From a bacterium (lineage in GTDB: Bacteria > Patescibacteriota > Microgenomatia > UBA8517), in contig JAJYIG010000001.1 in the NCBI GenBank assembly GCA_021790215.1, positions 194 through 64,193 of the forward strand: 64,000 nt of DNA. The letters are read 5' to 3'. A model generated the notes under the pieces. The model saw nothing but the letters and a program-made list of their open reading frames with translations, searched no databases and was not told the DNA's origin. Numbering within the stretch: position 1 is the stretch's first letter; each line of letters begins with the position of its first letter. Below are positions 4,101-22,704 of the stretch, piece after piece. Position numbers and translations under genes: made by a program.

Positions 4101-4214
4101 ATACTTTTTAACTAAACCAGTCTTATACCACCGCGAGAGAAGTTTTTTCTCAGCCTCAGGAAAGTTTAACTTAGGGTCAACCGGTTCAAAATAGAGCTTG
4201 CTTTTACCAGCCAT
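1194..4214 (-). CDS. ileS: Isoleucyl-tRNA synthetase
   Basis: 1006 aa. Class I aaRS with HIGH-like PITANNPMGVHHAWGRT, KMSKS-like MHKSWGN and the IleRS editing/zinc region YPACWRCKTELVW. Length is typical for IleRS. Confidence 0.85.
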   Translation of the reverse strand: MAGKSKLYFEPVDPKLNFPEAEKKLLSRWYKTGLVKKYLRRNKNSKKYFSFLDGPITANNPMGVHHAWGRTYKDIWQRFKNMQGYRQRFQNGFDCQGLWVEVEVEKELQFKNKKDIETFGVEKFVQLCRDRVKKYSGIQTEQSKRLGYFMDWDNSYYTLSEDNNYMIWHFLKVCYDNGWIYKGADVVPWCPRCETAISEHEILTEDYKEVTHESIFLSFPIVGQENEYLLVWTTTPWTVPANIAVAVDGDMEYVLAEVGKNKYWIGEDAAQRVFAGRKYKILKSVRGSKLVGLRYTAAFDDLPAVKSGAGKNDKFHTVVSTDPMLMPITATEGTGLVHTSTGTGTEDYKLGQKIGLPIIPAIDDMAEYLSGFDFLTGKNAKKHPELILDYLSKYEDGKFVFKTEKYTHRYPACWRCKTELVWKVTDEWYISMDRPATHKRQSRDAESEKWNSSDEEPEVSDVRTLREKMKEVAGKISWLPGFGLDREMDWLANMHDWLISKKNRYWGLALPIWECPKCGNFEVIGSKEELNKRSVTGKLKGSPHKPQIDEIKIKCSKCGAIAPRIEPVGNPWLDAGIVPFSTISENNKACGFGVTTTKPLYLTDKESWGKWFPADFITESFPGQFKNWFYSLIAMSTVLENANPFKTVLGFGTLLGEDGRPMHKSWGNSIEFNEGADKIGVDVMRWMFARANPAENMLFGYKVADEIRRRFHLKLWNIYNFFVTYANLDGWTPQRGKERVKSINVLDRWILIRLGQITTSVTEAMEKFNAVSASGEIEKFIDDVSLWYVRRSRSRVGPAAESEKDRNSFYATTYKLLCDISKILAPFTPFVADIMYSNLTKEESVHLADFPVSSLKIGIKGAELVEEMQMAREVVEKAHAVRKEKGIPVRQPLSMLSISNYQFSKEISQLIADEVNVKSVVSKSGKGELSVRLDIKITRELQEEAMIRDVVRKIQEERKNLGLNLTQKVNVYMERIPLDKKVTQWMIRKAQIAKLSEGKFKVVRSS

Positions 4215-4615: not shown

Positions 4616-5779
4616 TTAGTGGATTTTTCTTAAGAAGGCCGGAATTTCAAACTTCTGTCCAAACACATCCTCCTCACCCGGAGTTCCACCGTCATCATCG
4701 GGTGGTCTCTTTCTTTCTTCCTCATCTTCATTTTCCGTAATATGCTTGGTGGGCTCGCTGACAACGCCCTGAACTACTGGAGGCCTAACCTGCGTCTGGC
4801 TCATTTGAGCTAGACGTGAACGTGTTTCATCAAAACCTGTAGCAATAACCGTAATTTTAACCTGATCAGTAAGATCTGGTTTGATAACAGCTCCAAAAAT
4901 CACATTCGCGTCGGGATCGGCTGCTGAAGAAATGATCCTGGCAGCCTCATCAACCTCAAACATCGTCAAATCATTTCCACCAGCTATATTAAATAAAACT
5001 CCGCGGGCACCTTCAATAGAAAGGTCAAGAAGCGGAGAAGAGACAGCGGCGCGTGCTGCCATTTGGGCCCTGTTTTCGCCAACACCGGTTCCTATACCAA
5101 GAAGGGCAGAACCTGCTTCCTTCATAATTGTCTTAACATCAGCAAAATCAACATTTACAAGTCCTGCTGTAGTTATAATGTCAGCGATGCCCCCAACTCC
5201 TTGAGCCAGAACTGAATCTACAACTTTGAAGGCTTCGAGAAGTGTCATCTTACGGTCAATTACATCCATCAAACGCTGGTTAGGAATAACAATTAATGTG
5301 TCTGTAGCTTCCTTTAATTTTTCTATACCATCCTCAGCTGCCACCATCCTTCGAGTTCCTTCAAAAGCAAACGGTTTGGTGACAACTCCCACAGTAAGAG
5401 CTCCCGCTTCTTTTGCAAGTTGTGCGATAACAGGTGAGGCTCCAGTACCCGTTCCTCCTCCCATTCCTGCTGTAACAAAAACCATATCCGTATCAATCAT
5501 TAGCTCTTTAATTTTTTCGATAGACTCCTCGGCAGCGTGAGTACCGATTTCGGGATTTCCCCCCACACCAAGCCCTTTAGTTAACTTTTCTCCTATCTGC
5601 AGTTTTGTTGGAGCCTTATTGTTAAGAAGAACCTGAGCATCAGTATTAATCGCAATAAATTCAACACCATTGATCGTTCCTGAATCAATCATGGAGACAA
5701 TCGCGTTTCCGCCGCCGCCGCCGACGCCAATAACTTTTATTTTAGCTATCCTTGCGCTATCGGGTTTTACGAGTGCCAT
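4616..5779 (-). CDS. ftsZ: Cell division GTPase FtsZ
   Basis: Tubulin signature [13 protein letters not shown] and [20 protein letters not shown], with an acidic C-terminal tail. Confidence 0.97.
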
Positions 5780-5869
5780 AATATATTTATCAAAATTTCT
5801 TACAAAAATGTTAAATAAAGAATTTAAACAGACGCATTCGCCGCATTGTATCGTGGGCAGAAGAAAAAC

Positions 5870-7132
5870 TCAAGGCAGGAGATTCTTTATACTATCTATC
5901 ACCTTGCCGAAAATACCAATTGAGGGTAGTTTCACCTTTTTTGTGAAACTTGTCAAGTTCTGTTCCGGTATTTGTTTGGAACCATAAACCAAAAGTCCCA
6001 CTGAAGTTGCAAAAGAAGGTGTAATAATATCATCAATAAGACCTCCGACACCACCCGGAACACCAATTCTCACCGGAAGTGAAAGCATTCTTCTTGCAGA
6101 ATCGATTACACCAGCTGTTTCTGCACCTCCACCTGTAATGATTGCCCCTGAAGGAACCCTGTTGGCCAAACCTTCTCTTTCAAGTTCAAGCCTAACCATT
6201 GTAAATATCTCATTCAGACGAGGCCTTATTATTCCTTCCAAAAGAGTTTTTTTAGAAATTTTTTTGACCTCAGTAACACCCAGCGACTCCAGATCCACTT
6301 CATCCGTATCCTTATCATCTTTATGTTTTTTAGAAGAAAGAGCTAATTTGATTTTCTCTGCTGTCTCAAGTGAAACCCTCAGACCAATCGCCAAATCGTT
6401 GGTAACATTTTTAGCACCGACCGGAATCACACCCGAATAAGAAAGCGCACCGTCAACGTAAGCTGCAATTGAAGTTGTACCTCCGCCAATATCGACAAGG
6501 ACACATCCAAGCTCTTTTTCTGTCGGCGACACCACACCTTCTGAAGAGGCTACTCCTGAAAAAACCAAGTCTTCAATTTGGATCCCAACTTCATTAATTG
6601 CTTTTCTGAGATTTTTTACGGCGGCCGATGCAGCTGTAACAATGTGTGTATCAACTTCCAGCCGTACTCCGCTCATACCAACAGCATCTCTAACTCCCGC
6701 TTCTCCATCAACTACGAATTCTCTGGGCAAAACATGAATTACCTCCCGTGAAGCCGGCAAAGAAATCGCAGAAGCAGCTTCGATTGCCCGATCTACATCG
6801 TTTTGTGTAATTTCCCCGTTTGAATCAGATACCGCAACCACTCCATGTGAATTTTGTGAGTGAATATGCGCCCCGCCTAAAGAAACATAGGCAGCTTCAA
6901 GATTATATCCTGCCATTCTTTCTGCAGCCTCTACCGAGGAAATTATTGCCTCAACTGCCTCTTCAATATCTACTATCTGTCCTTTCTTGATTCCACGCGA
7001 TTCCGTTGCAGAAGCACCAACGACATTAATAGAAGTCTCAAAAGTTACAGGTTCTACCACAACCTGACTTACTAATGTGGAAATTTTACTTGATCCTATA
7101 TCAAGTGCAGCTACAATTCTGTTTTTAGCCAT
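5870..7132 (-). CDS. ftsA: Cell division protein FtsA (actin-like ATPase)
   Basis: 420 aa. N-terminal IVAALDIGSSKISTLV, DIGGGTT, actin-fold motifs, and its position upstream of ftsZ. Confidence 0.92.
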   Translation of the reverse strand: MAKNRIVAALDIGSSKISTLVSQVVVEPVTFETSINVVGASATESRGIKKGQIVDIEEAVEAIISSVEAAERMAGYNLEAAYVSLGGAHIHSQNSHGVVAVSDSNGEITQNDVDRAIEAASAISLPASREVIHVLPREFVVDGEAGVRDAVGMSGVRLEVDTHIVTAASAAVKNLRKAINEVGIQIEDLVFSGVASSEGVVSPTEKELGCVLVDIGGGTTSIAAYVDGALSYSGVIPVGAKNVTNDLAIGLRVSLETAEKIKLALSSKKHKDDKDTDEVDLESLGVTEVKKISKKTLLEGIIRPRLNEIFTMVRLELEREGLANRVPSGAIITGGGAETAGVIDSARRMLSLPVRIGVPGGVGGLIDDIITPSFATSVGLLVYGSKQIPEQNLTSFTKKVKLPSIGIFGKVIDSIKNLLP

Positions 7133-7137
7133 TTCAA

Positions 7138-7803
7138 TTATCTTAGCACAGGATTTTTATACCTCAAGTCGATTTGCGAATAAGAATTAACAGGTTCGCT
7201 TTGAATCTTTGAATATATCAATCTCAAAGCTCCAAGAAGAACCTGATAATCACCTTCTAAAGGAAATATTACTCTGATTCCACCAGGCATATCAACAAGC
7301 AAAGTTTTATTCTGAATATCCGAAGATTGAATCTGATACATTTCGTATACCCCAGCTTCCAGTTCAAGCGCAAAAAGATTTTGACCTCCGACATTTGCGC
7401 CTACAGCAGGAATACCACCGACAACTACGACAGTTGGTAGATTTGAGTTCTGTGTGGATGAAAAAACTTCACCGTTCTTCCCAACTAGATCTATATTTCC
7501 GGATCCTGAATCTTTTAGTGCAAACAAAGGCTCTCTAATGATTAGATTTACCTGAAGGAAATCCGGTAGTTTAAACTGCACTGAAAAATCTGAAACGAGA
7601 GGTTGGCTTTTGAGGAATTTTGAGAGCTCGGACCTAGCTTTAAAAAGGCTTTTATATTGCATTTTTGAAATCCCGGATTCAATTTCCACCGGACAGGATC
7701 CAACTTGAGATTTACATTCAATCCTTACTTTTACAAAAAATGGATAAAGAACCAAACCTAAAATAATGATGACTGCTGCGGTAGTTATCAGAATATTTTT
7801 CAC
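7138..7803 (-). CDS. ftsQ: Cell division protein FtsQ/DivIB (POTRA domain)
   Basis: 221 aa. Single N-terminal TM, C-terminal IDLRYKNPVL typical of FtsQ, and its position upstream of ftsA. Confidence 0.75.
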   Translation of the reverse strand: MKNILITTAAVIIILGLVLYPFFVKVRIECKSQVGSCPVEIESGISKMQYKSLFKARSELSKFLKSQPLVSDFSVQFKLPDFLQVNLIIREPLFALKDSGSGNIDLVGKNGEVFSSTQNSNLPTVVVVGGIPAVGANVGGQNLFALELEAGVYEMYQIQSSDIQNKTLLVDMPGGIRVIFPLEGDYQVLLGALRLIYSKIQSEPVNSYSQIDLRYKNPVLR

Positions 7804-7804
7804 T

Positions 7805-8962
7805 TTAGATTACGTAAGACTTGATAAGCTCTAAGAGTTTCTTGGAAGCCTCTTTGTCGGGGCTCGCTTTTGATTTAACTTTTTCCATTATCGATTGATA
7901 ATTTACAACCATGTTATCTAGGTTCCTGAGAAGAATCTCAGGAGTCAAATCTTTCTGCAAGATAATTTTGGCGATACCAAGTTCCTTGGCGATAAGCGCG
8001 TTTGCTTCTTGTTCGTTACGGTAGCTAATAGAAAGAGGAATCAAAATAGCCGGCCGTTTTACGGTTATAATTTCGGATACCGTATTTGCACCTGCACGTG
8101 ATACAATAAGATCAGCTTTCCCGTAAATTTCAGACACTTCTAGTGGGTTCACTCTAACAAATACTTCATAGTTATCTCTCAAAGCTTGCGGAAGTGCCTG
8201 TTTTATCTCCGAAAACTTATGATAATCCAGGCCTCCAGTTTGATGAATTACTTTATATTTCGCAAGGAGTTTCCTCAAAATTTTTTCAATAACTTTATTA
8301 ATACTTTGCGAACCACGCGATCCTCCGGTAATAAAAATGGTTGCGGGGTTTCCTATTTTCTTTTTAGGTTTAACCAAGGTGACTTCTTTCATGACCGGAT
8401 TGCCAGTAACAACACATTTTTGCAGAGGAAAATACTTTAAGCTATTTTCCCTGGATAGTGCAATCTTTGTCGCAAATTTTGATGAAATCTGATTCGAACG
8501 GCCACTCTCGGATGTTTGCTCGTGAATAACTATAGGAATTCCCAGAATTCTTGCACCCAAAACCACCGGGAAAGAGGCAAATCCACCAAAAGACAAAACT
8601 ACCTCAGGTTTAATCTGAACGAGGTAATAAAACGATTGAATAAAACCAATTGGTATTTTCAGAATTGAAGGGATTGTCCAAAATGTAAACCTAGTTTGGA
8701 AACGTCCTGTCTTTATCGCCAAAAATCTTACCCCTAGCCGGGGCAAAACTTCCGATTCCAATGTAACAATCTTTTTACCTTCAATTGCATTTCTCACACC
8801 AATCCAATAAAGCTTCCAATTCAGGTTTTGCGATCTAATTTCTTCCACCAAGGCAACTGCTGTTGTGGCAGCATGCCCGCCGGTAAAAACCACTGATTTA
8901 CTTTCTGTGTTTTTCATAAACATCGCTATATTTGCTGATATTAAGAAGTATACCGCAAGCAA
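7805..8962 (-). CDS. murG: MurG, UDP-GlcNAc:lipid I GlcNAc transferase
   Basis: VVFTGGHAATTAVAL and FITGGSRGSQSINK GT28 motifs. The true start is probably the internal Met near 8923 (MFMKNTESK...), which removes the overlap with ftsW. Confidence 0.9.
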   Translation of the reverse strand: MLAVYFLISANIAMFMKNTESKSVVFTGGHAATTAVALVEEIRSQNLNWKLYWIGVRNAIEGKKIVTLESEVLPRLGVRFLAIKTGRFQTRFTFWTIPSILKIPIGFIQSFYYLVQIKPEVVLSFGGFASFPVVLGARILGIPIVIHEQTSESGRSNQISSKFATKIALSRENSLKYFPLQKCVVTGNPVMKEVTLVKPKKKIGNPATIFITGGSRGSQSINKVIEKILRKLLAKYKVIHQTGGLDYHKFSEIKQALPQALRDNYEVFVRVNPLEVSEIYGKADLIVSRAGANTVSEIITVKRPAILIPLSISYRNEQEANALIAKELGIAKIILQKDLTPEILLRNLDNMVVNYQSIMEKVKSKASPDKEASKKLLELIKSYVI

Positions 8963-11157: not shown

Positions 11158-12180
11158 CTAAAGACGTCTCAAAAATTTTCTAATTCTCTCAAACAAATAT
11201 GTCAACCAATATAGCGGCGAAGTGGGCAGGTCACTAGCATGTAACCAATCTACCCTTTGTCCACCAAATCCGGTCTTGAATAAAGTTACTCCTGCAAAAC
11301 GATGATTCGGATTATTGTTCGGTGCAACTCCCCATAAATTATAGTATTTCAAACTACGTCTTTTTGCCTCCTGGATAATTTTCCATTGAAGGTAGTAAGA
11401 AAATGGCAAGCTAGGATATTTAGATGTTGATGCACTGAAATGATAGTAGGCAGCATTCCCATAAAATATTATTATTGCAGCTGCTAACACCTTCCGGTTC
11501 AACTTACACTCAAAAACACGCACACGATTGTCTTTTGCAAACGTTTCTATCTCTGCCTCAAACAGCTTTTGAGGAAAACCTACAAATTTATGACGTTTAG
11601 CAGTTTCCACTTGGAGATCGAACAATATCTTTGCCCTCCTCGGATCCTCTGACAACTCAACACTCAAACCGGAACCCAAACCTTTTTTCACAAGATACCT
11701 TGTCGATTTTCTCATTCCCATAAGTATTTTTTCTTCATCCTGGCTAATATCCAATATCCACGTATTTTCTGCATGAAGATGCATCGGCGCAGAGACAAAT
11801 CCAAATGATTTAAGAAGTTCTCTGTTATCTCTGGATTCAAGTATTTCCGGGCGTATTCTAACAAACCAAACACCTTCAGTATATGCAAGACTTCCTATCT
11901 CATCGACAAAAAAACGAAGCAGTTTTTTATTTCCAAAATCAAGAACAGGCCCGCCAGGGACAATCAGATGAGGCCCTCTTTTTGCATCCTCTCTGATAAG
12001 AAGGCATATGCCCACAAGTTTTTTCCCTTGGAAGAAACCAAGACGAAAAATTTTTGCTCCCATTCGTTCATTGACTTCACCCCAGTTCCACGACTGAAGA
12101 AATGACTTAGGATCTTTAGACAGCAAGAATCTCTCCCAAACCGCTTTATCTTCTATTACTTTTGATTTGTACTTCTCCAT
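11158..12180 (-). CDS. FemAB-family peptidyltransferase (FemX-like; tRNA-dependent addition of amino acids to the lipid II stem peptide)
   Basis: 340 aa. YYHFSASTSKYPSLPFSYYLQWKIIQEAKRRSLKYYNLWGV matches the FemAB C-terminal core (YYYGxS...Y...LQW..I..A...G...YDF.G). Lies inside the dcw cluster. Confidence 0.7.
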   Translation of the reverse strand: MEKYKSKVIEDKAVWERFLLSKDPKSFLQSWNWGEVNERMGAKIFRLGFFQGKKLVGICLLIREDAKRGPHLIVPGGPVLDFGNKKLLRFFVDEIGSLAYTEGVWFVRIRPEILESRDNRELLKSFGFVSAPMHLHAENTWILDISQDEEKILMGMRKSTRYLVKKGLGSGLSVELSEDPRRAKILFDLQVETAKRHKFVGFPQKLFEAEIETFAKDNRVRVFECKLNRKVLAAAIIIFYGNAAYYHFSASTSKYPSLPFSYYLQWKIIQEAKRRSLKYYNLWGVAPNNNPNHRFAGVTLFKTGFGGQRVDWLHASDLPTSPLYWLTYLFERIRKFLRRL

Positions 12181-13430
12181 AAATTTACAAGATTTGAAAT
12201 CCTCGTCGCTTCCTTCGCTGAAGTATTAATGTGAGTTGGAAGATTTAAGATTTGCTTTGAAATTTGTTCCGCCATAGGGCATTCTCCTTGATAACTTGTT
12301 TTAGCAAGCATTCTTCTTGGTGCAATGGGTGCATCATACCAAATATCTGAAACGTAAACCCTGTGACTTTTCAAATAAGTAACAAGGCCATTTCTGTTCT
12401 CTGTAAAAATCGGGTACCTTATGTTTGACGATTGATTGATATTCTTATTTAAATCATTCGATAACAAACTCTTATCAATAATCTCCATATATATCCTAGC
12501 AATTTTTCTTCGATGTCTGAGCTCAGAGTCAAATGAGGAAAACTTGTAATTAATCATAAAAGAATACCAATGAGGCAACCTGTGATATAAAACCAAATCC
12601 CTACCACCGATAGGTTGTGAAAGTACCTTTATTTTCTTCAGCAGAAAGTGTAAACCCCTTCCTAATCCAATTCGATAAAGACACCGAACCTTATACGTTA
12701 GGATTGGGTACAGTCGGTCTTTAAACCTTCTGATACTAGAAACATCAAAATACTGTATTTCTTTAAGACCCTTGTTAAACTTCTTGTTTCGTACAATCAG
12801 TGCGCCACCTGAAACGCCATCTATTATCTTATCCTGGCTGAACGAAAGCGTTGTAAAATCGCCAATTTTCCCAGCTTCCATACCATTTGAATAAAGGGTA
12901 CCTACACTATGAGCTAAATCTTCAATCAGAATAGTTTTATTTTTACTACAGTATTTTTTGATCTCCGCAATATCAACTGGATTACCAAGCGTATTTTGGA
13001 TAATGATAGCTTTCAGGTTTTTCACCTTTTCTAGTGCCTTGGACGAAAAATTCAAACTCTTGTCTATGTCTATATAGACAGGAATACACCCTGCTTCTAC
13101 CACGGCTTCATAAACCACAAAGCAAGTTAGCCCATTTACACCTATTCTGCTCCCTTTAGGGAATTGACACAGGTCAAGAGCTAACTTAATAGCTTCCCTG
13201 CCTTTATAGAGCAAAACTGGCTTTCCATCATATTTAGTATTCAAAAACTTTTTCAACTTCTCGCCTTCACCAAGAGTTCTCGAGGTAAAAAATGACTTAA
13301 CAACATATGCAAGGTTGTAATTTGAACCAAGCGAATTAAATACCATTTTTAATAATATTCCAGACTCTCTCGGGATGAGTATAAAAAGGGGTGTGTCTTG
13401 CTCCGTCAACAATAACCAATCTTGAACCAC
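12156..13430 (-). CDS. DegT/DnrJ/EryC1/StrS-family PLP-dependent aminotransferase-like protein
   Basis: Fold landmarks VNGLTCFVVYEAVVEAGCIPVYIDID, AIIIQNTLGNPVDIAEI, ILIEDLAHSVG and the putative Schiff-base Lys in LSFSQDKIIDGVSGGALI. Probable true start is the internal Met (MVFNSLG...) near 13346. Confidence 0.65.
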   Translation of the reverse strand: MVQDWLLLTEQDTPLFILIPRESGILLKMVFNSLGSNYNLAYVVKSFFTSRTLGEGEKLKKFLNTKYDGKPVLLYKGREAIKLALDLCQFPKGSRIGVNGLTCFVVYEAVVEAGCIPVYIDIDKSLNFSSKALEKVKNLKAIIIQNTLGNPVDIAEIKKYCSKNKTILIEDLAHSVGTLYSNGMEAGKIGDFTTLSFSQDKIIDGVSGGALIVRNKKFNKGLKEIQYFDVSSIRRFKDRLYPILTYKVRCLYRIGLGRGLHFLLKKIKVLSQPIGGRDLVLYHRLPHWYSFMINYKFSSFDSELRHRRKIARIYMEIIDKSLLSNDLNKNINQSSNIRYPIFTENRNGLVTYLKSHRVYVSDIWYDAPIAPRRMLAKTSYQGECPMAEQISKQILNLPTHINTSAKEATRISNLVNLWRSTNQK

Positions 13431-14055
13431 GAATCAGCTTTTCCATAATTCTTCCGTCAGAAAGTGGAGTTATTGTATCGTCCCTGCCCCAGATAATAAG
13501 CGTAGGTGTTTCTATTTCATCTAAATATGGTACTAAATCAGTACGTGTTAAATTTACCATCGATATCTTCATATTCGCAGACGCTTTCTGATAGTCACGC
13601 TCTCTTGCAAGGTAATATAAAAGGTTCTTCAGCGAATCCGACTTAGTAACCTTCTTACCGATGCTACTGAGAGTGCCAAAAACAAAACGTTTTATCTGAA
13701 GGAACAGCTCCTTATGATAAACACCGGCCGGGTCAATCAAAATCAGTTCTTGGAACTTTTCAGGGTGCTTCGCTGCAAAATAGGCTGCAATTCTACCACC
13801 ATTACTATGTCCCAAAAGTACAATCTTTCCCTTAATTTTATTTAACTCATCTCCAAGCCAGTCAGAATACCTTTCAATATCCCACACCTCATCCGAAGGC
13901 GCAGTTAAACCCGGAATCTTAAGAAAGATTAATTCACAACCGTCCTTTTTTAATAACTTTGCAAAGGTTTTCCACTTATCCAACGAATAGGTCCAACCAT
14001 GCAAAACATATATTTTTTTAATCACAGTCCCCATTTTTTCCTCCTTATCTCCCAA
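13336..14055 (-). CDS. Alpha/beta-fold hydrolase
   Basis: 239 aa. Nucleophile elbow LLGHSNGG, acid GRDDTITP and His GARHTPF give a catalytic triad pattern. Confidence 0.8.
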   Translation of the reverse strand: MGDKEEKMGTVIKKIYVLHGWTYSLDKWKTFAKLLKKDGCELIFLKIPGLTAPSDEVWDIERYSDWLGDELNKIKGKIVLLGHSNGGRIAAYFAAKHPEKFQELILIDPAGVYHKELFLQIKRFVFGTLSSIGKKVTKSDSLKNLLYYLARERDYQKASANMKISMVNLTRTDLVPYLDEIETPTLIIWGRDDTITPLSDGRIMEKLIRGSRLVIVDGARHTPFYTHPERVWNIIKNGI

Positions 14056-15278
14056 ATTTTTTCTCTTCTAGAAAGCATTTCAATATTCTTCTTATTTTTA
14101 AGTAGATGTTCAATTACCCCTTCAAGAAATCTTGCTCCCTTAAAAAGGATAATCTCTCCGCCTCTTAGGTTGCTTTTAAGATATTCCAAAACCTCTTTCG
14201 GACCGAGGAACGCCACCGTACTATCCGGTAAAAGCGGTTTGGTGTATTGAGTAACCCTGGGCCCCATTAAAATTATCCTATCAAACTTAAAATTTAAGAT
14301 CAGTTTTGCAAGATTCTCATGTTCCTCCTTCTCTTCTTTTCCTTGTTCAAGCATGTCTCCCAAGACTACCCACTTCTTCCTGGCTTTTATCTTGCCAAAC
14401 ATGCCAACAACAGCAGACATTGAATCCATATTTGCATTGTAAGTACTATCTACTATGGTAGTACCTTTAATTCCTTCAAAAAGTGAGTTTCGCCCCGGGG
14501 GCAAAATAAATTTTCCAAACGTTACATCAAACTCAATACCTAAGTAATTTGTAATTTGCCTTGCCATAAGTATCGAGGTAGATATCTCACCTGGCATTAA
14601 ATATCTAAAACTCACAACAAAATCATCAAATTTAAATTCCGTTTTTCCCAAACTAATTGAGTAATTTTTCAAACTATGTTTAGAGGAAACAGAAACAACA
14701 TTTGCCATTGTCCTTCCAAGCTCGCTGGCCTCATACAAATCGTCATCATTAATTATGACGAGGTTTCGGGTGCGTTCAATAAAATAACCAAATTCATATG
14801 CAATTGCGTTTTCAATTCTTGAAAATTTGTTCTTTCCTACCAGCCTATCAAAGTTCATACTGTGAGTTCTTGATACGTTGGTCCAAGCAGTTACCTCAGG
14901 TTTTAGAAGAGAACTAATGAAATTTCCTTCATAGGGTCTGTCGCAGTCCGCTTCAACAATATATATCTTTTCTCTCGGAACTGGTTTGAAAAGACTAAAG
15001 ATAGGAAGAAAAACTATCTTGGGCCATTCAATAAATGTGAGGTCCTTTCTATGAATTCCCAAAATATCAAAGGGGATTCCGAACGAACTATTGGCCTCGT
15101 GTGTGTATTTTGCCTTATCTCCAATCTGGGACTCCACCAAATGAAGTAGTGTGGTCTTTCCACTCGATCCTGTAATGACAATTATTCTCGGATTCCAAAA
15201 TTTAAGTCTGAGAGAAGCAAAAAAACGAAAATAAAAGGCAAGTGGAAAGTAAAAAAGCCTTTTAATTCTTATGTACAT
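14022..15278 (-). CDS. murF: Mur ligase, MurF-like (UDP-MurNAc-tripeptide:D-Ala-D-Ala ligase) lacking the usual N-terminal domain
   Basis: P-loop IVITGSSGKTT at residue about 33, IVDSTYNANMDSMSAVVG, and the C-terminal domain GDMLEQG (MurF GDMLELG). Confidence 0.65.
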   Translation of the reverse strand: MYIRIKRLFYFPLAFYFRFFASLRLKFWNPRIIVITGSSGKTTLLHLVESQIGDKAKYTHEANSSFGIPFDILGIHRKDLTFIEWPKIVFLPIFSLFKPVPREKIYIVEADCDRPYEGNFISSLLKPEVTAWTNVSRTHSMNFDRLVGKNKFSRIENAIAYEFGYFIERTRNLVIINDDDLYEASELGRTMANVVSVSSKHSLKNYSISLGKTEFKFDDFVVSFRYLMPGEISTSILMARQITNYLGIEFDVTFGKFILPPGRNSLFEGIKGTTIVDSTYNANMDSMSAVVGMFGKIKARKKWVVLGDMLEQGKEEKEEHENLAKLILNFKFDRIILMGPRVTQYTKPLLPDSTVAFLGPKEVLEYLKSNLRGGEIILFKGARFLEGVIEHLLKNKKNIEMLSRREKIWEIRRKKWGL

Positions 15279-15285
15279 ACACTAA

Positions 15286-16059
15286 TTATAAATCGACCTT
15301 GGTTATTTTGTCTTGAAGCTTTTGCCCCAAGAAGATTTCAGCCATCCTAGTAAAACGTTCGGTAAAATCTGTAACAAAGTAAGTGCTTTTGCCTACCAAA
15401 TTTTGGGAGTTTAACATCGAGTTTACTTTTAAATATTCGTAAACTTGTTTAGCCGCGGCTTTACCAGGATCAATTAACTTCACTCGATAATCAACCTCAC
15501 TCTCAATAATATTTTGGATAATCGGGTAGTGGGTACATCCCATTATCAGGGTATCTATTTTCTTTTTTTTAAAAGGATCTAAATATTTTTTAGCAATTAG
15601 TTTAAGTGCAGGTGTGTCAATTTCATCCTCCTCAATAAAGGGAACAAATAGAGGACAGCTTTGGGAATAAGAAACTTTATATGCGCCACTCTCGATTGTT
15701 CCCCTGGTACCGATTACTCCAATTTTTCCGGTTTTTGAAATCTTCCTTGCTTCGTCAATAGCCGGAGTAATTACGTCAAAGATCGGAACTCCCAATTTCT
15801 TTTTTAGAGCATTACCAGCAAGAGCCGAGGCGGTATTGCAGGCAATAACAATGCACTTAACTTTTTTATCCAAAAGAAAATTTGCATCTTCAAATGCAAA
15901 TTTTGTTACTGTTTCTTTACTTCTTGTTCCATAAGGAACTCCGGCAGTGTCTCCCAAATAAATAAAATCCTCATGCGGCATAAGTTTTATTAACTGCTTC
16001 AAAACTGTTAAACCACCAAGACCTGAGTCAAAAACTCCAATAGGATTTTCTTTAGTCAT
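15286..16059 (-). CDS. murI: Glutamate racemase
   Basis: VFDSGLGGLTV, GDTAGVPYG, IACNTAS and MGCTHYP motifs. Confidence 0.92.
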   Translation of the reverse strand: MTKENPIGVFDSGLGGLTVLKQLIKLMPHEDFIYLGDTAGVPYGTRSKETVTKFAFEDANFLLDKKVKCIVIACNTASALAGNALKKKLGVPIFDVITPAIDEARKISKTGKIGVIGTRGTIESGAYKVSYSQSCPLFVPFIEEDEIDTPALKLIAKKYLDPFKKKKIDTLIMGCTHYPIIQNIIESEVDYRVKLIDPGKAAAKQVYEYLKVNSMLNSQNLVGKSTYFVTDFTERFTRMAEIFLGQKLQDKITKVDL

Positions 16060-17362
16060 TCTGAAGAGATTCTACAGCCTTTTTGAATTGATTTCCCCTA
16101 TCCTTGTAATTTCGAAACATGTCAAAGGAGGCAGAGGCCGGCGATAAGATAACCACTCCTCCTTTTGGTGTAACTTCATACGCCTTCTTAACTATCTTAT
16201 CCATCGACGAATACCCCAAATCAAACATTTCACCTTTAAAGACATGGTCTTTAAAGGTATCTAAAATCTTTACCCTAGTGTCACCAACCAAAATGATGTT
16301 TATGATATTTTTTTTCTTCACTATCTCACGCGCCAGGTCAGCATAATCCAATCCTTTATCACTTCCTCCCAAAATCAATGTCTCCGGCTCGGAAAAAGAA
16401 TTTATTGCAGCAATTGTAGGTTGAGGTCCCGTTGCAAAAGAATCATTATAAAAAGTCACGCCACCCACCGTACTAACAAGTTCCAAACGATGTTCCAAAC
16501 CTTTAAAGTTTTTTACCGTCTCAAGAATTTTATCATCACCAACTTCTAAAATCCTGCCGACAGAAACCGCCGCAGCAATATTTTCTAAATTATGTTCTCC
16601 CCTTAAAAGCAGCTTTTCTTTGAATTTACTATCTAAAAATTCTTTCGAAAAAAATATTACTTTCCCTTTTGTAAATTCTGCGAAGCTTCTTGAAGTTTCA
16701 TATTCCTCGTTTATAAGCGAATAATCAGAAGGTTTTTGATGACTGACGATATTTCTTTTTGCCTCAACATACTCTTCCCGATTCTTGTGCCAATCAAGGT
16801 GATCAACAGTAATATTAAGAACCACAGCAATGTGTGGACTAACATTCATATCTATAAGTTGGAAAGAAGACATTTCCATTATTACGAGACTATCAGAAGA
16901 CAGCTCCGGCAAAAGCTCCAAATAAGGCTTACCTATATTCCCAGCAAGATAGACATTCTTTCCTGCTGCTTTCAAAATCTCATAAACTAAAGTCGATGTT
17001 GTCCCTTTACCTTTAGTACCGGTCACGCCAATAATTTTGCCCGGACATTCATCAAAAAATATTTTTATGGGGCTTGTAATTATTACACCTGATTCCTCCG
17101 CAGAAATTATTTCAGGGATATATCTGTAAACTCCGGGTGAACGGACAATCAGGTCAAAATCATTGAGCCCTTCCTTTAGGTAATCTTGTCCGAGCTTCCA
17201 TGAAACGTCGTTCACGTTGAGCTTCTCAATACTTTCATTTCGGTCAAAAACGGTGATCTTTGCACCTCGTTTTCTCAAAAAATTCAAGGCATCTTTCCCT
17301 TCCAAGCCAAAACCCAAAATCGCAACATTTTTATTTCTATATTCCATATTGTTTGTATTCAT
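16052..17362 (-). CDS. murD: MurD, UDP-MurNAc-L-Ala:D-Glu ligase
   Basis: N-terminal Rossmann VAILGFGLEGKDALNFL, then the Mur ligase P-loop IIGVTGTKGKGTTSTL. Confidence 0.9.
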   Translation of the reverse strand: MNTNNMEYRNKNVAILGFGLEGKDALNFLRKRGAKITVFDRNESIEKLNVNDVSWKLGQDYLKEGLNDFDLIVRSPGVYRYIPEIISAEESGVIITSPIKIFFDECPGKIIGVTGTKGKGTTSTLVYEILKAAGKNVYLAGNIGKPYLELLPELSSDSLVIMEMSSFQLIDMNVSPHIAVVLNITVDHLDWHKNREEYVEAKRNIVSHQKPSDYSLINEEYETSRSFAEFTKGKVIFFSKEFLDSKFKEKLLLRGEHNLENIAAAVSVGRILEVGDDKILETVKNFKGLEHRLELVSTVGGVTFYNDSFATGPQPTIAAINSFSEPETLILGGSDKGLDYADLAREIVKKKNIINIILVGDTRVKILDTFKDHVFKGEMFDLGYSSMDKIVKKAYEVTPKGGVVILSPASASFDMFRNYKDRGNQFKKAVESLQND

Positions 17363-17388: not shown

Positions 17389-19653
17389 TTAAAAGTTTAT
17401 TAACTGGACTTCACGCTCCAGCCTTACACCAAATTTTCTAAAAACATCGGCAATTATATTTTCTGAAAGATCGTAAATATCTGAGGCACTAGATTTACCA
17501 TCAGGATTTATTAAAATAAGAGAGTTTCTGGATGAAACGGCAGCAGTCTTATAACTTTTACCCTTCCAACCGGCTTGTTCTATCAACCACGCTGCAGAAA
17601 CTTTAAAGGATTTACCAAAAGGAAAAATTTTTATTTCCGGATATTCTTTCTTCAATCTAGTTTCTGCATCCTGGGAGACAATCGGGTTTTTGAAAAAAGA
17701 TCCGGCATTGCCAATCTTTTTCGGATCCTCCAACTTTTCTGACCTAGCTTTTAAAACTGCGTTCCTTACCTGAAGTAAAGTAGAATTTTCAGAAAGATAG
17801 TTCTTAAGAGTTTCATAACCAATAAATGGTTTTCCACCTTTATTGAGTTTTAAAGTTACTTCTGTTATTAAAAATTTTTGCCAATGAGACTTTTTCTTAA
17901 AAATACTTTCTCTATAATCAAATTTACAATCTTCTTTATCGAAAGTGACAAATTTTTCTATATCAATGTTGTAAGCTTTAAGGCTCACAAAAACATCCTT
18001 CAGTTCCTGCCCATACGCTCCGATATTTTGTATGGGGGCAGCTCCTACTGTGCCGGGAATACCGGACATACACTCGATTCCCTGCAAATTATTCCGAACA
18101 GAATAGTCGACCAAATCGTCCCACTTCATTCCGGCACCTGCCGTAACCAAAGCTTCGTTCCCGTTAAAATTTACGTTAACGCTTTTACCCGAGAACTTAA
18201 TAACAATCCCATCAAAATCTTTGTCGCTAGGGAGGATGTCACTTCCACCTCCAATAATAAAAAATGGTTGATCATTCTTTTTAATTTCCTTCACCATTGC
18301 AGGTATCTCCACCTCTGAGTCAATCTCAACATATCGATTAATTTTTCCGCCAACCCTAAAGGTTGTAAGATCGGAAAATTTGACAGGAAGTAAATTGGCA
18401 ATTTCCCTCGCCCATAGGTAGCTTTTTCCGGCACCCATGACCAAGACAATATCACCTTCTCTTAAATCACGCAGCAATATATCTTTAATTTCTTCAAACG
18501 AATCAAATCCTTTCGCATCCTTATGTCCTGTCTCCTTTGCAACAATTTCCGGGGTAATTCCGAACGTCTCCTTATCGCGTGCCTTGAAAATCGGCCCGAT
18601 TAAAACTTTATCAGCATCCATAAAAGAATTTTTATATAAAGAAAGTAGGGCCTTGGTTCTGACAAAACCGTGCGGTTCATCGATAGCCCAAATCTTTGAT
18701 TTTGGGTAAACCTCGCGAAGCGCCGAGATTGTTGCCGCGATTGCTGTGGGGTGATGGGCATAATCATCATAAACTTTTACACTGCTTCTATCCGAAATAA
18801 GCTCAAGTCTCCTACCAATACCTTTGAAATTTTCAAGAGAGTCCCTAATGGTTTCATTTTTAATTCCCAGAAGTTCTGCAAGTTTCAAAACCCCCAAAGC
18901 ATTTGCAATATTGTGTTTACCCGGAATCTTCAGAGTAAAACCAAGGCTCTCTTTAGATGGAAAATATTTAATAATTTTGATATCGGCAGTATCAAGAGAT
19001 ACCAAAAGTTTTTGTATTCCTTCTGACTCCCCGTTAACGATCAGGGTTTTTTCTCCAACCAGGTTCCCGACAAATTTAGAAAAACTTTTAATTACCTCCT
19101 CCTCAGAAGCAAAATAATCGGGATGGTCAAACTCGATGTTATTTAGAACAATAATTTCCGGGTGATAATTCAGAAAATTATCGTTAAATTCATCTGCTTC
19201 AATGACAAAATACTCCCCCTTTCCATACCTGGAATTCCCGTTCCACTCAGGGACAGTCGCTCCAAGAACTACCGTGGGGTCCAGTCCGGCATCAACGAGA
19301 AGACGACCGGTCATTGCTGTTGTTGTAGATTTGCCATGAGTTCCTGCTACGCAAATTACCTTTTTATCCTTTGCCAGATACTTTCCTGCAAATTCCTCCC
19401 AAGTTACAACCACTTTTCTTTTCTCACCTTCGATAAGCTCCGGGCTTTTATTTTTCTGGAAATATACAGCTGGCGTGACAACCAATAAATCAATACCTTC
19501 CAAGTGTTTTGGATTGTGGCCCTGGATTATGTCACCGGAATATGCAGTACTTTTCTCCAAGTCACACCCCGTAATTTCATATCCCATGTTGGCAGCAAGC
19601 TTGGCAACTCCTGCCATTCCGCTTCCTCCAATTCCCATCATGTGAATTCTCAT
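17389..19653 (-). CDS. murC/murB: Bifunctional MurC-MurB fusion (UDP-MurNAc:L-Ala ligase fused to UDP-GlcNAc-enolpyruvate reductase)
   Basis: 754 aa. Residues 1-~440 are MurC (HMMGIGGSGMAGVA, VCVAGTHGKSTTTAM). Residues ~445-754 are MurB (TTFRVGG, FIIGGGSDIL, IPGTVGAAPIQNIGAYGQE; FAD-binding/PCMH fold). The domain boundary is near nt 18320. A 4-nt ATGA overlap with murE gives translational coupling. Confidence 0.85.
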   Translation of the reverse strand: MRIHMMGIGGSGMAGVAKLAANMGYEITGCDLEKSTAYSGDIIQGHNPKHLEGIDLLVVTPAVYFQKNKSPELIEGEKRKVVVTWEEFAGKYLAKDKKVICVAGTHGKSTTTAMTGRLLVDAGLDPTVVLGATVPEWNGNSRYGKGEYFVIEADEFNDNFLNYHPEIIVLNNIEFDHPDYFASEEEVIKSFSKFVGNLVGEKTLIVNGESEGIQKLLVSLDTADIKIIKYFPSKESLGFTLKIPGKHNIANALGVLKLAELLGIKNETIRDSLENFKGIGRRLELISDRSSVKVYDDYAHHPTAIAATISALREVYPKSKIWAIDEPHGFVRTKALLSLYKNSFMDADKVLIGPIFKARDKETFGITPEIVAKETGHKDAKGFDSFEEIKDILLRDLREGDIVLVMGAGKSYLWAREIANLLPVKFSDLTTFRVGGKINRYVEIDSEVEIPAMVKEIKKNDQPFFIIGGGSDILPSDKDFDGIVIKFSGKSVNVNFNGNEALVTAGAGMKWDDLVDYSVRNNLQGIECMSGIPGTVGAAPIQNIGAYGQELKDVFVSLKAYNIDIEKFVTFDKEDCKFDYRESIFKKKSHWQKFLITEVTLKLNKGGKPFIGYETLKNYLSENSTLLQVRNAVLKARSEKLEDPKKIGNAGSFFKNPIVSQDAETRLKKEYPEIKIFPFGKSFKVSAAWLIEQAGWKGKSYKTAAVSSRNSLILINPDGKSSASDIYDLSENIIADVFRKFGVRLEREVQLINF

Positions 19654-21647
19654 TTTAGTTTTTCCTCCATCTTTCTCTCAGCCTCTGCAAGCTGTTCAGG
19701 GGTATTGATTCCCTGCCACTCAATTGAATTAGGAAGTGTATAGGCAACAGTCCTTTCTCCCTGATCAATCGCCATTTTGATAAGCTCGACTATGTAATAT
19801 TCTCCGGAAACAGGGCTTTTTTCAACTTTTGGCAGATTTTTCTCCAGCCACTTTTTATCAAATACATAAAGTCCATCATTTATTTCCTTAATCTTTCGCT
19901 CTTTATCCGTCGCATCTTTTTCTTCAATAATACCTTTCAGATTTCCTCTTCCATCACGTACGATTCTTCCAAGTCCGTGGGGGTCATCCTTAATTAGAGT
20001 GACAAAACTTAAGATAGCTTTTTTCTCCTTATGGTTTTCCAAAACTTTATTTATTGTCTCTGGAGAATAAAACGCAGTATCGTCTCCATATAAAACCATT
20101 ACGTATTTTGTTTCATCCGAAACACGCTGAAGTCCGGAGGAAGCAGCGTCTGCGGTTCCTCCTTTGGGATTACCCTGAACTGCAATCTTAACCGCGCCAT
20201 CTATTTGCCTTATAACCAGATTTTTCTTAAATGAAACCACAACAATAATTTCTCCAACACCGGCATTTCTTAAATGCTGAAGTGAATAAGTGATCATGGG
20301 TCTTCCGCAAATTTTGTGAAGGACTTTGGGAAGGCCTGAGTTCATCCTGGTCCCTTTTCCGGCCGCAAGGAGGATCGCAGAAACATCTTTTTTCCTTTCA
20401 ATGTAGTTTTTTACGGACTCAAAATCGCTCCAAGGATGTTCATATCCATCGTAGGCCATACTTTTCTCATGTCCTTTTCCGGCGAAAACTACAGTGTCTC
20501 CTTTTTTAGCAATTGAGAGAGCATAGGGAATTGCCTCCCCTCTTTCGGGAATCGCGACATAATTTTTGGCGTCCTTCTTCATCGATCGCAAAATATCAAA
20601 AATATTTTCACTTCTCGGATCCTCAGCCGTAAAGACACTCATATCGGCCAATTCTCCGGATATTTTGCCCATCTTTCGGCGTTTTTTATGATCCCTTTCT
20701 CCTGCGCAACCAAAAACTGAGATTAACTTTCCGGACGTAACTGATCTCAAATATTTTAGAAGTGCCTCAAGTGATTCTGGGGTATGTGCAAAATCAATAA
20801 AAACCTTAATGCCCAAATTATTTTTAATTTCCATAAGTCGTCCTTCGGGAAGCTTAAAGGTTTTTAAGGTCATAAGAGCTTGGCTCCTCTCAAAACCAAG
20901 TTTTTCAACTGCCATTAAAGCTGCCTCCACATCCAAATTGTTAAAATCCCCCGGAAGAATTTTCAAGTTTGTAAACTCCGGAGCAATAACCTTCAACCTG
21001 GCCGAATTCAAAAATGACATTTTAACCTTCTTATATTCCTTAAAGGTTTTGTGATAATCCAAATGCTCAGGCGCAATATTGGTCAAAACTCCTACTTCAA
21101 ATCTAACCCCGGCAATTCTTTTTTGATCAATTCCATGCGAACTAACCTCGACCACAGCATATTCACATCCCGCCTTTACCATTTCCGCTAAAAATTTATG
21201 AAGAGAGAGTGTGTCAGGACTTGTTACATGGAAACCTGTATCAATCTCTTTATCCCCTATCTTGGCAATTATTGAAGAAACCAGGCCAGTTTTCTTACCT
21301 AACGAGGTTAAAATATGATAGATCAGGTGAGATGTGGTAGTTTTACCTTTCGTGCCTGTTACTCCTATTACTGTAAGATGCTCGGAAGGGTTGCCATAAA
21401 ATTCTGAAGCGATCTCCCCAAGGGCCTCCCTTGAATCCGGCACTTTTATGTATATGGCATCTTTCAGCTTCAAATTTCGCTCTCCAACTACTGCAATCGC
21501 TCCCCTTTTTACAGCCTCAGAAATAAAATCGTGGCCGTCAGAATTCATGCCTTTTATAGCTACAAAGATAAAGCCTTTTCTTACATTTCTTGAGTCATCG
21601 GCAACCCCCTTTGCGCCTTTGACCAAATCCTCCAAATCTTTTATCAT
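19650..21647 (-). CDS. murE: MurE (UDP-MurNAc-dipeptide:diamino-acid ligase) fused to a GlmU-type sugar-1-phosphate uridylyltransferase domain
   Basis: 665 aa. Residues 1-~415 are MurE (ADDSRNVRKGFIFVAIKG, VIGVTGTKGKTTTSHL, GKGHE). Residues ~416-665 are ILLAAGKGTRMNSGLPKVLH, LYGDD and EEKDATDKERKIKEINDG, which closely match the GlmU N-terminal uridyltransferase signatures (LAAGKGTRM, YGDVPL, KDATxEQRxIxEIN). No LbH acetyltransferase domain follows. Confidence 0.8.
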   Translation of the reverse strand: MIKDLEDLVKGAKGVADDSRNVRKGFIFVAIKGMNSDGHDFISEAVKRGAIAVVGERNLKLKDAIYIKVPDSREALGEIASEFYGNPSEHLTVIGVTGTKGKTTTSHLIYHILTSLGKKTGLVSSIIAKIGDKEIDTGFHVTSPDTLSLHKFLAEMVKAGCEYAVVEVSSHGIDQKRIAGVRFEVGVLTNIAPEHLDYHKTFKEYKKVKMSFLNSARLKVIAPEFTNLKILPGDFNNLDVEAALMAVEKLGFERSQALMTLKTFKLPEGRLMEIKNNLGIKVFIDFAHTPESLEALLKYLRSVTSGKLISVFGCAGERDHKKRRKMGKISGELADMSVFTAEDPRSENIFDILRSMKKDAKNYVAIPERGEAIPYALSIAKKGDTVVFAGKGHEKSMAYDGYEHPWSDFESVKNYIERKKDVSAILLAAGKGTRMNSGLPKVLHKICGRPMITYSLQHLRNAGVGEIIVVVSFKKNLVIRQIDGAVKIAVQGNPKGGTADAASSGLQRVSDETKYVMVLYGDDTAFYSPETINKVLENHKEKKAILSFVTLIKDDPHGLGRIVRDGRGNLKGIIEEKDATDKERKIKEINDGLYVFDKKWLEKNLPKVEKSPVSGEYYIVELIKMAIDQGERTVAYTLPNSIEWQGINTPEQLAEAERKMEEKLK

Positions 21648-21675: not shown

Positions 21676-22704
21676 CTAGGCAGAACCCGATTCCAAGATG
21701 GCCTTTGCAAGCCTTTCGGAATTATGGCGTAAAAGATGATCCTTCTTTAGGTATTCCCCAAGCTTAGCCTTAACAACCTTCACATTTGGTGCAAGCTTTC
21801 TGCAGAGTTCTTCGTCAAGCTCAACCACTTCCTGACCTTCCTTTTTATAAAGATTCACTATTTCTTTATCCAATCTTGCATTACTTACTACCAAAAAGTT
21901 TAAGCGTTTTTTATTGCCTAAATAAAAAAGTAATGCCTTAAGGTAATCCGATGCTTTGAAAGAATCAGTTTCACCTGGCTTAGTAGTCAAATTTAAGACG
22001 AAGTAAACTTTTGCACGGGAACGGCAGATGGCCTCCGCAACTCCGTCAATCAAAAGGTGCGGCAAAACACTTGTAAAAAGATCTCCTGGAGCAAAGACAA
22101 TTTTATCAGCCTGGCTTATGGCAGTGAGCACTTTGGGATTATTGTCGGCGTGAGTTCCAAAATAAATCCTCACAATTCTATCTTTTGGATCAAAATCCTT
22201 TCTTTCACTTCTTTTATCGATATTTGTTTCACCATCCACCTCAACTCCACGCTCAGTATGGCAACCAAGAGTTAAATCGGTAAGACTTGCGGGAAGGACC
22301 TGGCCGCGAATACGGAATAAGGCTCTTTCGGCGTCGGTTCCTCTATCCTGTCCATGAAATATACGATCAAGCCTGACACCAATTAAATTACCAAGGGAAT
22401 GTCCTTTTAGTGGGCCAACCACTTCTTTTAGTCTATCGTCAAAAAGTCTCTGGGCAACTCTTTGCTGTTCATCGTCTTCCATTAAAGCCAAAAGACAGGC
22501 TCTAATGTCCCCCGGAGGCAAAACTCCGAGTTCAGTACGTAAAATACCGGAAGAACCTCCACTGTCCCATGTCCCAACTACTGCAGTTATCAAAGATGGG
22601 TCGTTAAACTTTTTTAAACCGGTGAGAAGTTGAAAATGGCCGGTCTTACCGCCAAAAGTCACTATCTTTTGTCTGAATTTACTTTTGGCCGTTTGAGCTA
22701 TCAT
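21676..22704 (-). CDS. YvcK/UPF0052 (CofD-like, gluconeogenesis-factor/GlmR family) protein
   Basis: IVTFGGKTGHFQLLTGLK ... VVGTWDSGGSSGILR ... LPPGDIRACLLAL matches the YvcK/CofD family core (GGGTG, DDGGSSG, PPGDxRN). Confidence 0.75.
   Translation of the reverse strand: MIAQTAKSKFRQKIVTFGGKTGHFQLLTGLKKFNDPSLITAVVGTWDSGGSSGILRTELGVLPPGDIRACLLALMEDDEQQRVAQRLFDDRLKEVVGPLKGHSLGNLIGVRLDRIFHGQDRGTDAERALFRIRGQVLPASLTDLTLGCHTERGVEVDGETNIDKRSERKDFDPKDRIVRIYFGTHADNNPKVLTAISQADKIVFAPGDLFTSVLPHLLIDGVAEAICRSRAKVYFVLNLTTKPGETDSFKASDYLKALLFYLGNKKRLNFLVVSNARLDKEIVNLYKKEGQEVVELDEELCRKLAPNVKVVKAKLGEYLKKDHLLRHNSERLAKAILESGSA

Follow-up and report, generated by a model that had tools for sequence, protein, structure and literature searches.

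Within a 64,000-nucleotide stretch of bacterial DNA (Patescibacteriota; Microgenomatia; UBA8517; contig JAJYIG010000001.1 of assembly GCA_021790215.1, forward-strand positions 194 to 64,193; hereafter the window), we identified a single open reading frame (ORF) that joins two peptidoglycan precursor enzymes, the ligase MurC and the reductase MurB. This ORF very probably encodes one genuine bifunctional MurC-MurB enzyme, translated as a single 754-residue polypeptide. The domain identity of both halves, their intact catalytic residues, their fold and the conservation of fusion and junction in relatives carry this conclusion. The ORF lies where a preliminary description of the window had placed it; its strand, which that description left unstated, is the minus strand. 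It comprises 754 amino acids (aa) plus a stop codon, with an ATG start and no internal stops. A GGAGG motif is located ~10 nt upstream of the start, and the stop codon is TAA, with murD beginning 26 nt further downstream. The features of the gene and its product, all on the minus strand, are as follows.

17389..19653, minus: whole murC-murB ORF
19650..19653, minus: ATGA overlap of the murE-glmU(N) stop and the murC-murB start, read directly from the sequence
18394..19653, minus: MurC module, aa 1-420 (Pfam, TIGR01082, alignments to solved MurC structures, TM-score to 1P3D)
19405-19650, minus: Mur_ligase N domain, aa 2-83 (Pfam)
18886-19350, minus: Mur_ligase_M domain, aa 102-256 (Pfam)
18427-18813, minus: Mur_ligase_C domain, aa 281-409 (Pfam)
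19321..19344, minus: ATP-binding P-loop GTHGKSTT, aa 104-111 (G104-T110 invariant in 104 fused homologues)
18379..18399, minus: fusion junction ANLLPVK, aa 419-425 (gap between the MurC and MurB models)
17392..18393, minus: MurB module (type I, E. coli-like), aa 421-754 (Pfam, NF000755, alignments, Foldseek)
17971-18333, minus: FAD_binding_4 domain, aa 441-561 (Pfam)
17398-17772, minus: MurB_C domain, aa 628-752 (Pfam)
17911..17913, minus: MurB catalytic Arg581 (E. coli Arg159; alignment to 2MBR; invariant)
17698..17700, minus: MurB catalytic Ser652 (E. coli Ser229), within GNAGSFFKNP (alignment to E. coli MurB; invariant)
17410..17412, minus: MurB catalytic Glu748 (E. coli Glu325; alignment; conserved in at least 90% of sequences)

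Domain analysis revealed that all five Pfam domains of the protein exceed their gathering scores. Against the NCBIfam models, the N-terminal half matched TIGR01082 (murC) with 349.6 bits (cut-off 335.1) over aa 2-418, covering model positions 1-448 of 449, and the C-terminal half matched NF000755 (type I MurB) with 336.6 bits (cut-off 277) over aa 426-753, while the type II model NF010480 reached 176.2 bits, below its cut-off of 259. The Pfam search and the NCBIfam cut-offs thus bear out the earlier proposal that this one ORF encodes MurC and then MurB, and both enzymes are complete. The motifs quoted in support of that proposal are likewise present: GTHGKSTT at aa 104-111, GGGSDIL at aa 468-474 and GIPGTVGAAPIQNIGAYGQE at aa 531-550.

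The MurC half retains the complete three-domain Mur ligase architecture (N, M and C), and its P-loop is accompanied by the motifs EADE (152-155), NIEFDH (172-177) and DDYAHHP (296-302), all four being invariant or nearly so across the 104 fused homologues. In the MurB half, both the flavin adenine dinucleotide (FAD)-binding fold of the PCMH type and the MurB C-terminal substrate domain were recovered by Pfam and by model superposition. A sequence search of the PDB with this half scored 201 bits for P. aeruginosa 4JAY, ~179 for E. coli MurB and 65 for S. aureus 1HSK. Its alignment to E. coli MurB is gap-free across the type I-specific segment carrying Tyr190 and Lys217, and places Tyr613, Lys640 and Asn656 at the positions of E. 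coli Y190, K217 and N233. Arg581 and Ser652 are invariant among the 104 homologues, and Lys640 and Glu748 are conserved in at least 90% of them.

An AlphaFold2 model built from the 104-homologue alignment gave a mean predicted local distance difference test score (pLDDT) of 91.6 and a predicted template modelling score (pTM) of 0.81, with the junction ordered (pLDDT ~90). In Foldseek comparisons, the N-terminal part of this model superimposed on H. influenzae MurC 1P3D with a template modelling score (TM) of 0.82-0.83. The C-terminal part matched type I MurB (4JAY and 1MBB) at TM 0.92 and a root-mean-square deviation of 1.7-1.8 Å, and fitted type II MurB 1HSK worse (TM 0.81, 4.0 Å), so that the MurB FAD-binding fold expected of this half is indeed present. 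No PDB chain spans both halves, the best query-normalised TM-score being 0.52.

The junction and the alternatives to a genuine fusion

The MurC model ends at aa 418 and the MurB models begin at aa 423-426, which delimits the junction to aa 419-425. It had previously been placed near nt 18320, a position already within the MurB module and ~60-80 nt from the true junction at nt 18379-18399. Consistent with the preliminary description, the assembled sequence shows neither a stop nor a frameshift at the junction, and aa 419-425 contain no ATG, GTG or TTG that could serve as a separate MurB start.

To place this architecture among its relatives, we searched a collection of 5.8 billion proteins and examined the best 120 matches. 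All 120 homologues (52-68% identity) carry the five domains in one protein; they derive from independent NCBI, ENA, JGI and Logan assemblies, and the named entries among them belong to Woesebacteria or Patescibacteria. Some Patescibacteria fusions carry a JGI annotation as multifunctional. The spacing between the invariant Trp414 and Thr430 is 15 aa in 51 of the 104 fused homologues and 16 aa in a further 26. The junction consensus reads WAREIAxL(L/I)-P(V/I)-xFSDLTTF, with WAREIANLL-PV-KFSDLTTF in the window, and an LLPV/LIPI junction is common to the closest relatives P0002 (68% identity) and P0025.

Scanning species-representative genomes yielded 74 loci, of which 11 are Woesebacteria-like. 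The survey of related genomes recommended at the outset recovered the same single murC-murB ORF at five of these 11 loci (L001, L002, L003, L004 and L009, the last a complete genome, CP011214). At five others (L005, L007, L008, L010 and L011) the two genes are separate, with murB in the -1 frame, and the remaining locus, L006, carries a separate murC plus a fused MurB-MurD at 5440-7842, an architecture also present in P0253 and P0264. The ATG of split murB genes lies either within the conserved murC Leu-Trp codons (TT ATG GG) or in an ATGA overlap.

These split relatives give some substance to the suspicion that an insertion or deletion introduced by sequencing or assembly merged separate, overlapping murC and murB genes in this metagenome-assembled genome (MAG). 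At six of the 11 related loci murB has an ORF of its own, which lies in the -1 frame and overlaps murC at its end, an arrangement in which a single-base change could switch between the fused and split states, and stand-alone MurB proteins of 52-64% identity are common. The window junction, however, is in frame with identical spacing in 51 of 104 independently assembled homologues and differs by one residue in 26 more, whereas the junctions of split relatives differ and begin with MGK.., MGT.. or MK... In the window, moreover, reading from the ATG that the Leu-Trp codons contain in the -1 frame leads to a stop, leaving no usable separate MurB start. In GC content and third-position GC content (GC3), the two halves (0.413/0.374 and 0.366/0.320) stay inside the range of neighbouring genes. 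Given the fused homologues, the kept junction, the lack of a second murB or murC in the window and a base composition like that of the neighbours, an indel artefact is very unlikely. A chimeric assembly join was also considered and rejected, since GC and GC3 of the halves lie within the neighbour range and relatives have kept the join. For the window itself, programmed -1 frameshifting was rejected as well, the fusion being hard-coded in one frame.

The identity and activity of the halves were weighed in the same way. A different Mur-family enzyme in the N-terminal half, be it the recycling ligase Mpl or a portion of a MurC-Ddl type protein, has a very small probability: the Mpl and MurC/Ddl models both match this half significantly, but TIGR01081 (mpl) gives 187.6 bits against a cut-off of 388.7 and so fails the equivalog criterion, and NF011171 (MurC/Ddl) gives 179.7 bits against 1015, while TIGR01082 exceeds its own cut-off and separate MurD, MurE and MurF are encoded in the same cluster. 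We also regard as very unlikely a genuine fusion in which one half has no catalytic activity, or a purely structural or regulatory role, with the activity supplied by a gene elsewhere. Our view covers 64 kb of the genome, and the precedent from Verrucomicrobium spinosum, described below, is in keeping with such a loss; yet all catalytic and cofactor-binding residues checked are present and conserved across the 104 homologues, both halves exceed their equivalog cut-offs, and no paralogue occurs within the window, though the remaining pathway clusters there.

Several considerations nevertheless weigh against a bifunctional enzyme. The intact junction is read from assembled sequence, bifunctionality is predicted from that sequence and a modelled structure, and the high pTM is itself a prediction. 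No second murB or murC was found within the 64-kb window, and a stand-alone copy may exist elsewhere in the genome. In the characterised MurC-MurB fusion of V. spinosum, no MurB activity was found in vitro, nor did the isolated MurB domain complement (PMC4803751), so reductase activity in a fused context is not guaranteed.

Fused, split and larger architectures among relatives

Two Mur fusions in one cluster had earlier been taken to suggest strong streamlining of the cytoplasmic peptidoglycan pathway, which may be the case. The MurC-MurB fusion is not fixed in this lineage, because close relatives carry the genes both fused and split. A search with the MurB half alone recovered 119 stand-alone MurB proteins (313-357 aa, 52-64% identity), whose N-termini match the two split architectures. 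At the other extreme, MurC-MurB-MurD triple fusions of ~1130-1170 aa account for 15 of the 120 best full-length matches and come from several independent assemblies (P0003, P0004, P0006, P0008, P0011, P0018, P0019, P0028, P0033, P0044, P0046, P0047, P0052, P0054 and P0093).

A neighbour-joining tree of 240 MurB domains required at least 23 fused/split changes, against ~81 for shuffled labels. This tree carries no branch support, so the 23 changes are not to be taken literally, and it can be read only as a sign that the fused or split state clusters in the phylogeny while being labile. The junction shared by most fused proteins suggests fewer fusion or fission events than the tree count.

Other arrangements occur at more distant loci. 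Daviesbacteria carry a stand-alone murC with no adjoining murB, followed at L016 by murI on the opposite strand and then murD, and a Woykebacteria locus has murC and a type II murB as separate genes.

Among the split loci, L008 (9110-9190) and L011 (8925-9000) contain a T_TTA_AAG heptamer in the murC frame directly before the murC stop, and L010 (9120-9200) has T_TTA_AAC at the same position. The split murB of L005 (9170-9250) has its -1-frame start in TT ATG GG, as in L008, L010 and L011. A -1 slip at the heptamer of L008, L010 or L011 would read into MurB (..FK[ED]LTT..) and give a fused protein; the heptamer may equally be a mere by-product of Phe-Lys coding in an AT-rich genome. Separately, the records of L001, L002, L006, L013 and others are titled 'uncultured Gammaproteobacteria bacterium' despite Patescibacteria-like gene content and similarity, and these MAG records are probably mislabelled.

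Relation to known MurC-MurB chimeras

MurC-MurB chimeras are a recognised class, from which the window protein differs by its Patescibacteria host, its type I MurB and its essentially absent linker. A MurC-MurB fusion has been characterised in V. spinosum and reported for Verrucomicrobiales and Methylacidiphilales (Naqvi et al. 2016, PMC4803751). Shirakawa et al. (2023) listed five chimera types, namely MurE-MurF, MurC-Ddl, MurC-MurB, MurG-MurC and MurD-FtsW (PMC10214165), and the window protein belongs to the third of these. In their UniProt survey, which left out unidentified species, MurC-MurB made up 11% of annotated Mur chimeras and was assigned to Verrucomicrobia; Patescibacteria, a MurE-GlmU chimera and a MurC-MurB-MurD chimera go without mention (PMC10214165). 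We found no relevant paper on Mur fusions in Patescibacteria, the candidate phyla radiation (CPR) or Woesebacteria, and no report of MurC-MurB-MurD or MurB-MurD architectures.

To gauge how common such fusions are, we compared a junction-spanning query (aa 300-540) with 1.84 billion cluster representatives at 50% identity and examined the best 150 matches. MurC-to-MurB fusions account for 58 of these 150. The preliminary description had called comparable fusions rare, citing Verrucomicrobia; the verrucomicrobial report is correct (PMC4803751), but in view of this count and the 11% share the rarity is only partly right and was overstated. Assigned by closeness to reference, a distinction that NCBIfam confirmed on ten examples, the MurB half is type II in 47 of the 58 fused representatives, type I in four (including the window's class) and ambiguous in seven. 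Type II fusions scored 285-321 bits with NF010480, above its cut-off (P0390, P0258, P0297, P0307 and P0261), and type I fusions 289-346 bits with NF000755 (P0245, P0247 and P0321). One further fused protein, P0246 (770 aa, ENA), has a MurC half 53% identical to the window's and a MurB half closer to type II, with NF010480 at 231 bits and NF000755 at 162 bits, both below cut-off; it may represent a third combination, or a MurB half replaced within a fusion.

The V. spinosum and window proteins are both single chains of ~750-770 aa in which MurC comes first and MurB second; the five Pfam domains are common to them, as are the two consecutive pathway steps that each one joins. They differ in phylum (Verrucomicrobia versus a Woesebacteria-like member of Patescibacteria), in gene context and in the MurB domain, which spans 292 aa in the V. 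spinosum construct (Gly479-Leu770, beginning ..KLYEPMANH; PMC4803751) and 334 aa here, including the Tyr190-containing segment. The V. spinosum start YEPMANH fits the (N/D)EPMxxHTT motif with which MurB begins in type II fusions, and from this motif and the domain length its MurB half appears to be type II. The junctions differ as well, with 15-16 residues between the MurC and MurB invariant positions here versus ~29-54 from MGAG to HTT in the type II class. Relative to stand-alone type I MurB (1MBB/2MBR, 4JAY) and MurC (1P3D), the window protein has the same folds and catalytic residues, but covalently joined.

With a type I rather than a short type II MurB half, the window protein does not fit the monophyletic verrucomicrobial MurB/C clade. 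The Patescibacteria fusion therefore probably arose independently of the Verrucomicrobium one, a conclusion that we infer from the published description of the V. spinosum protein. The V. spinosum peptides KLYEPMANH and ...EEEPLPL had no exact match among the representative proteins searched.

The dcw cluster and the proposed role of the fusion

The murC-murB gene is embedded in a complete division and cell wall (dcw) cluster spanning window positions 1-28200 on the minus strand, in the order mraZ-rsmH-ftsL-ftsI-murA-cofD-like-murE/glmU(N)-murC/murB-murD-murI-murF-...-mraY-ftsW-murG-ftsA-ftsZ. The immediate neighbours are:

19650..21647, minus: MurE (aa ~13-395) fused to the GlmU N-terminal uridyltransferase domain (aa ~420-665), 665 aa (Pfam, NCBIfam)
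16052..17362, minus: murD, downstream neighbour, fused onto MurB in some relatives (Pfam)

The upstream gene is the second of the two Mur fusions that had been noted in this cluster. Its MurE part matches TIGR01085 with 442 bits, the protein lacks an acetyltransferase (LbH) domain, and MurE-GlmU(N) forms a single stop-free ORF in nine related loci; Daviesbacteria, by contrast, encode GlmU-N on its own, in a 255-aa gene that immediately precedes murC. The MurE-GlmU type is absent from the chimera list of the 2023 survey, which never mentions GlmU (PMC10214165).

The cluster contains no ddl within positions 1-28200. It includes a second SEDS gene (164-1192) and a gene for isoleucyl-tRNA synthetase (IleRS; 1194-4214). 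A CofD/YvcK-like gene lies between murA and murE-glmU (21676-22704, minus), and for MurF (14022-15278, 418 aa) Pfam recovers no Mur-ligase domains other than the middle and C-terminal ones. Between murF and mraY (11158-14055, minus) are genes for a FemAB-family transferase, a DegT-type aminotransferase and an alpha/beta hydrolase; together with the CofD/YvcK-like gene they make up a non-canonical set that hints at a modified stem peptide or interpeptide bridge. A scan of the whole window with Rfam returned nothing at the gathering threshold, with no tRNA, rRNA or riboswitch detected.

MurB converts UDP-GlcNAc-enolpyruvate to UDP-N-acetylmuramic acid (UDP-MurNAc), and MurC adds L-alanine to UDP-MurNAc; the reactions are consecutive (PMC6420597, PMC10214165) and have been termed 'sequential steps' (PMC4803751). 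Because the product of MurB is the substrate of MurC in the pathway MurA, MurB, MurC, the earlier statement that MurB acts two steps before MurC, making the fused steps non-consecutive, was mistaken.

We propose that the C-terminal module (aa 421-754) would act as an FAD-dependent, NADPH-using UDP-N-acetylenolpyruvoylglucosamine reductase that yields UDP-MurNAc, and that the N-terminal module (aa 1-420), as the ATP-dependent ligase MurC, would attach L-alanine to this same UDP-MurNAc. The fused protein would thereby catalyse the second and third steps of the cytoplasmic pathway, and the order of its domains along the chain is inverted relative to the reaction order. Fusion would impose a fixed 1:1 stoichiometry and co-localisation of MurB and MurC, and may favour hand-over of UDP-MurNAc between their sites. 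Both activities would presumably reside on a single translated chain, and a kinetic advantage, or channelling between the two sites, is possible. The short junction, well ordered in the predicted model, argues against proteolytic processing of the fused chain, and by analogy with V. spinosum the protein may function as a single uncleaved active polypeptide.

We tentatively suggest a broader scenario, which we consider possible though somewhat less than an even prospect: Woesebacteria-like Patescibacteria may have independently evolved a linker-less fusion of MurC with type I MurB, of fixed inter-module geometry. This fusion may represent one stage in a lineage-specific series (MurE-GlmU(N), MurC-MurB, MurB-MurD and MurC-MurB-MurD) that forms and breaks repeatedly via small changes of frame at the junction. 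In that case, such naturally occurring chimeras of two or three enzymes would offer compact models of the cytoplasmic Mur multi-enzyme complex, which has long been hypothesised, and of a direct transfer of UDP-MurNAc between enzymes.

Our understanding of the Mur pathway itself is unchanged by this finding. Its significance would grow somewhat if the junction, conserved and free of a linker, should prove to be that of a rigid two-enzyme machine and the fusion series of this lineage helps structural work on the proposed Mur complex. The Woesebacteria fusions, which are small, lack a linker and are modelled with confidence, and their three-enzyme relatives would be good candidates for the first MurC-MurB chimera structure, the PDB containing none so far, and both would be suited to tests of substrate channelling in the Mur pathway, an antibiotic target. 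Collectively, the joining of MurB and MurC emerges as a recurrent evolutionary outcome that involves both MurB subtypes and unrelated phyla, which strengthens the case that the two enzymes benefit from physical coupling.

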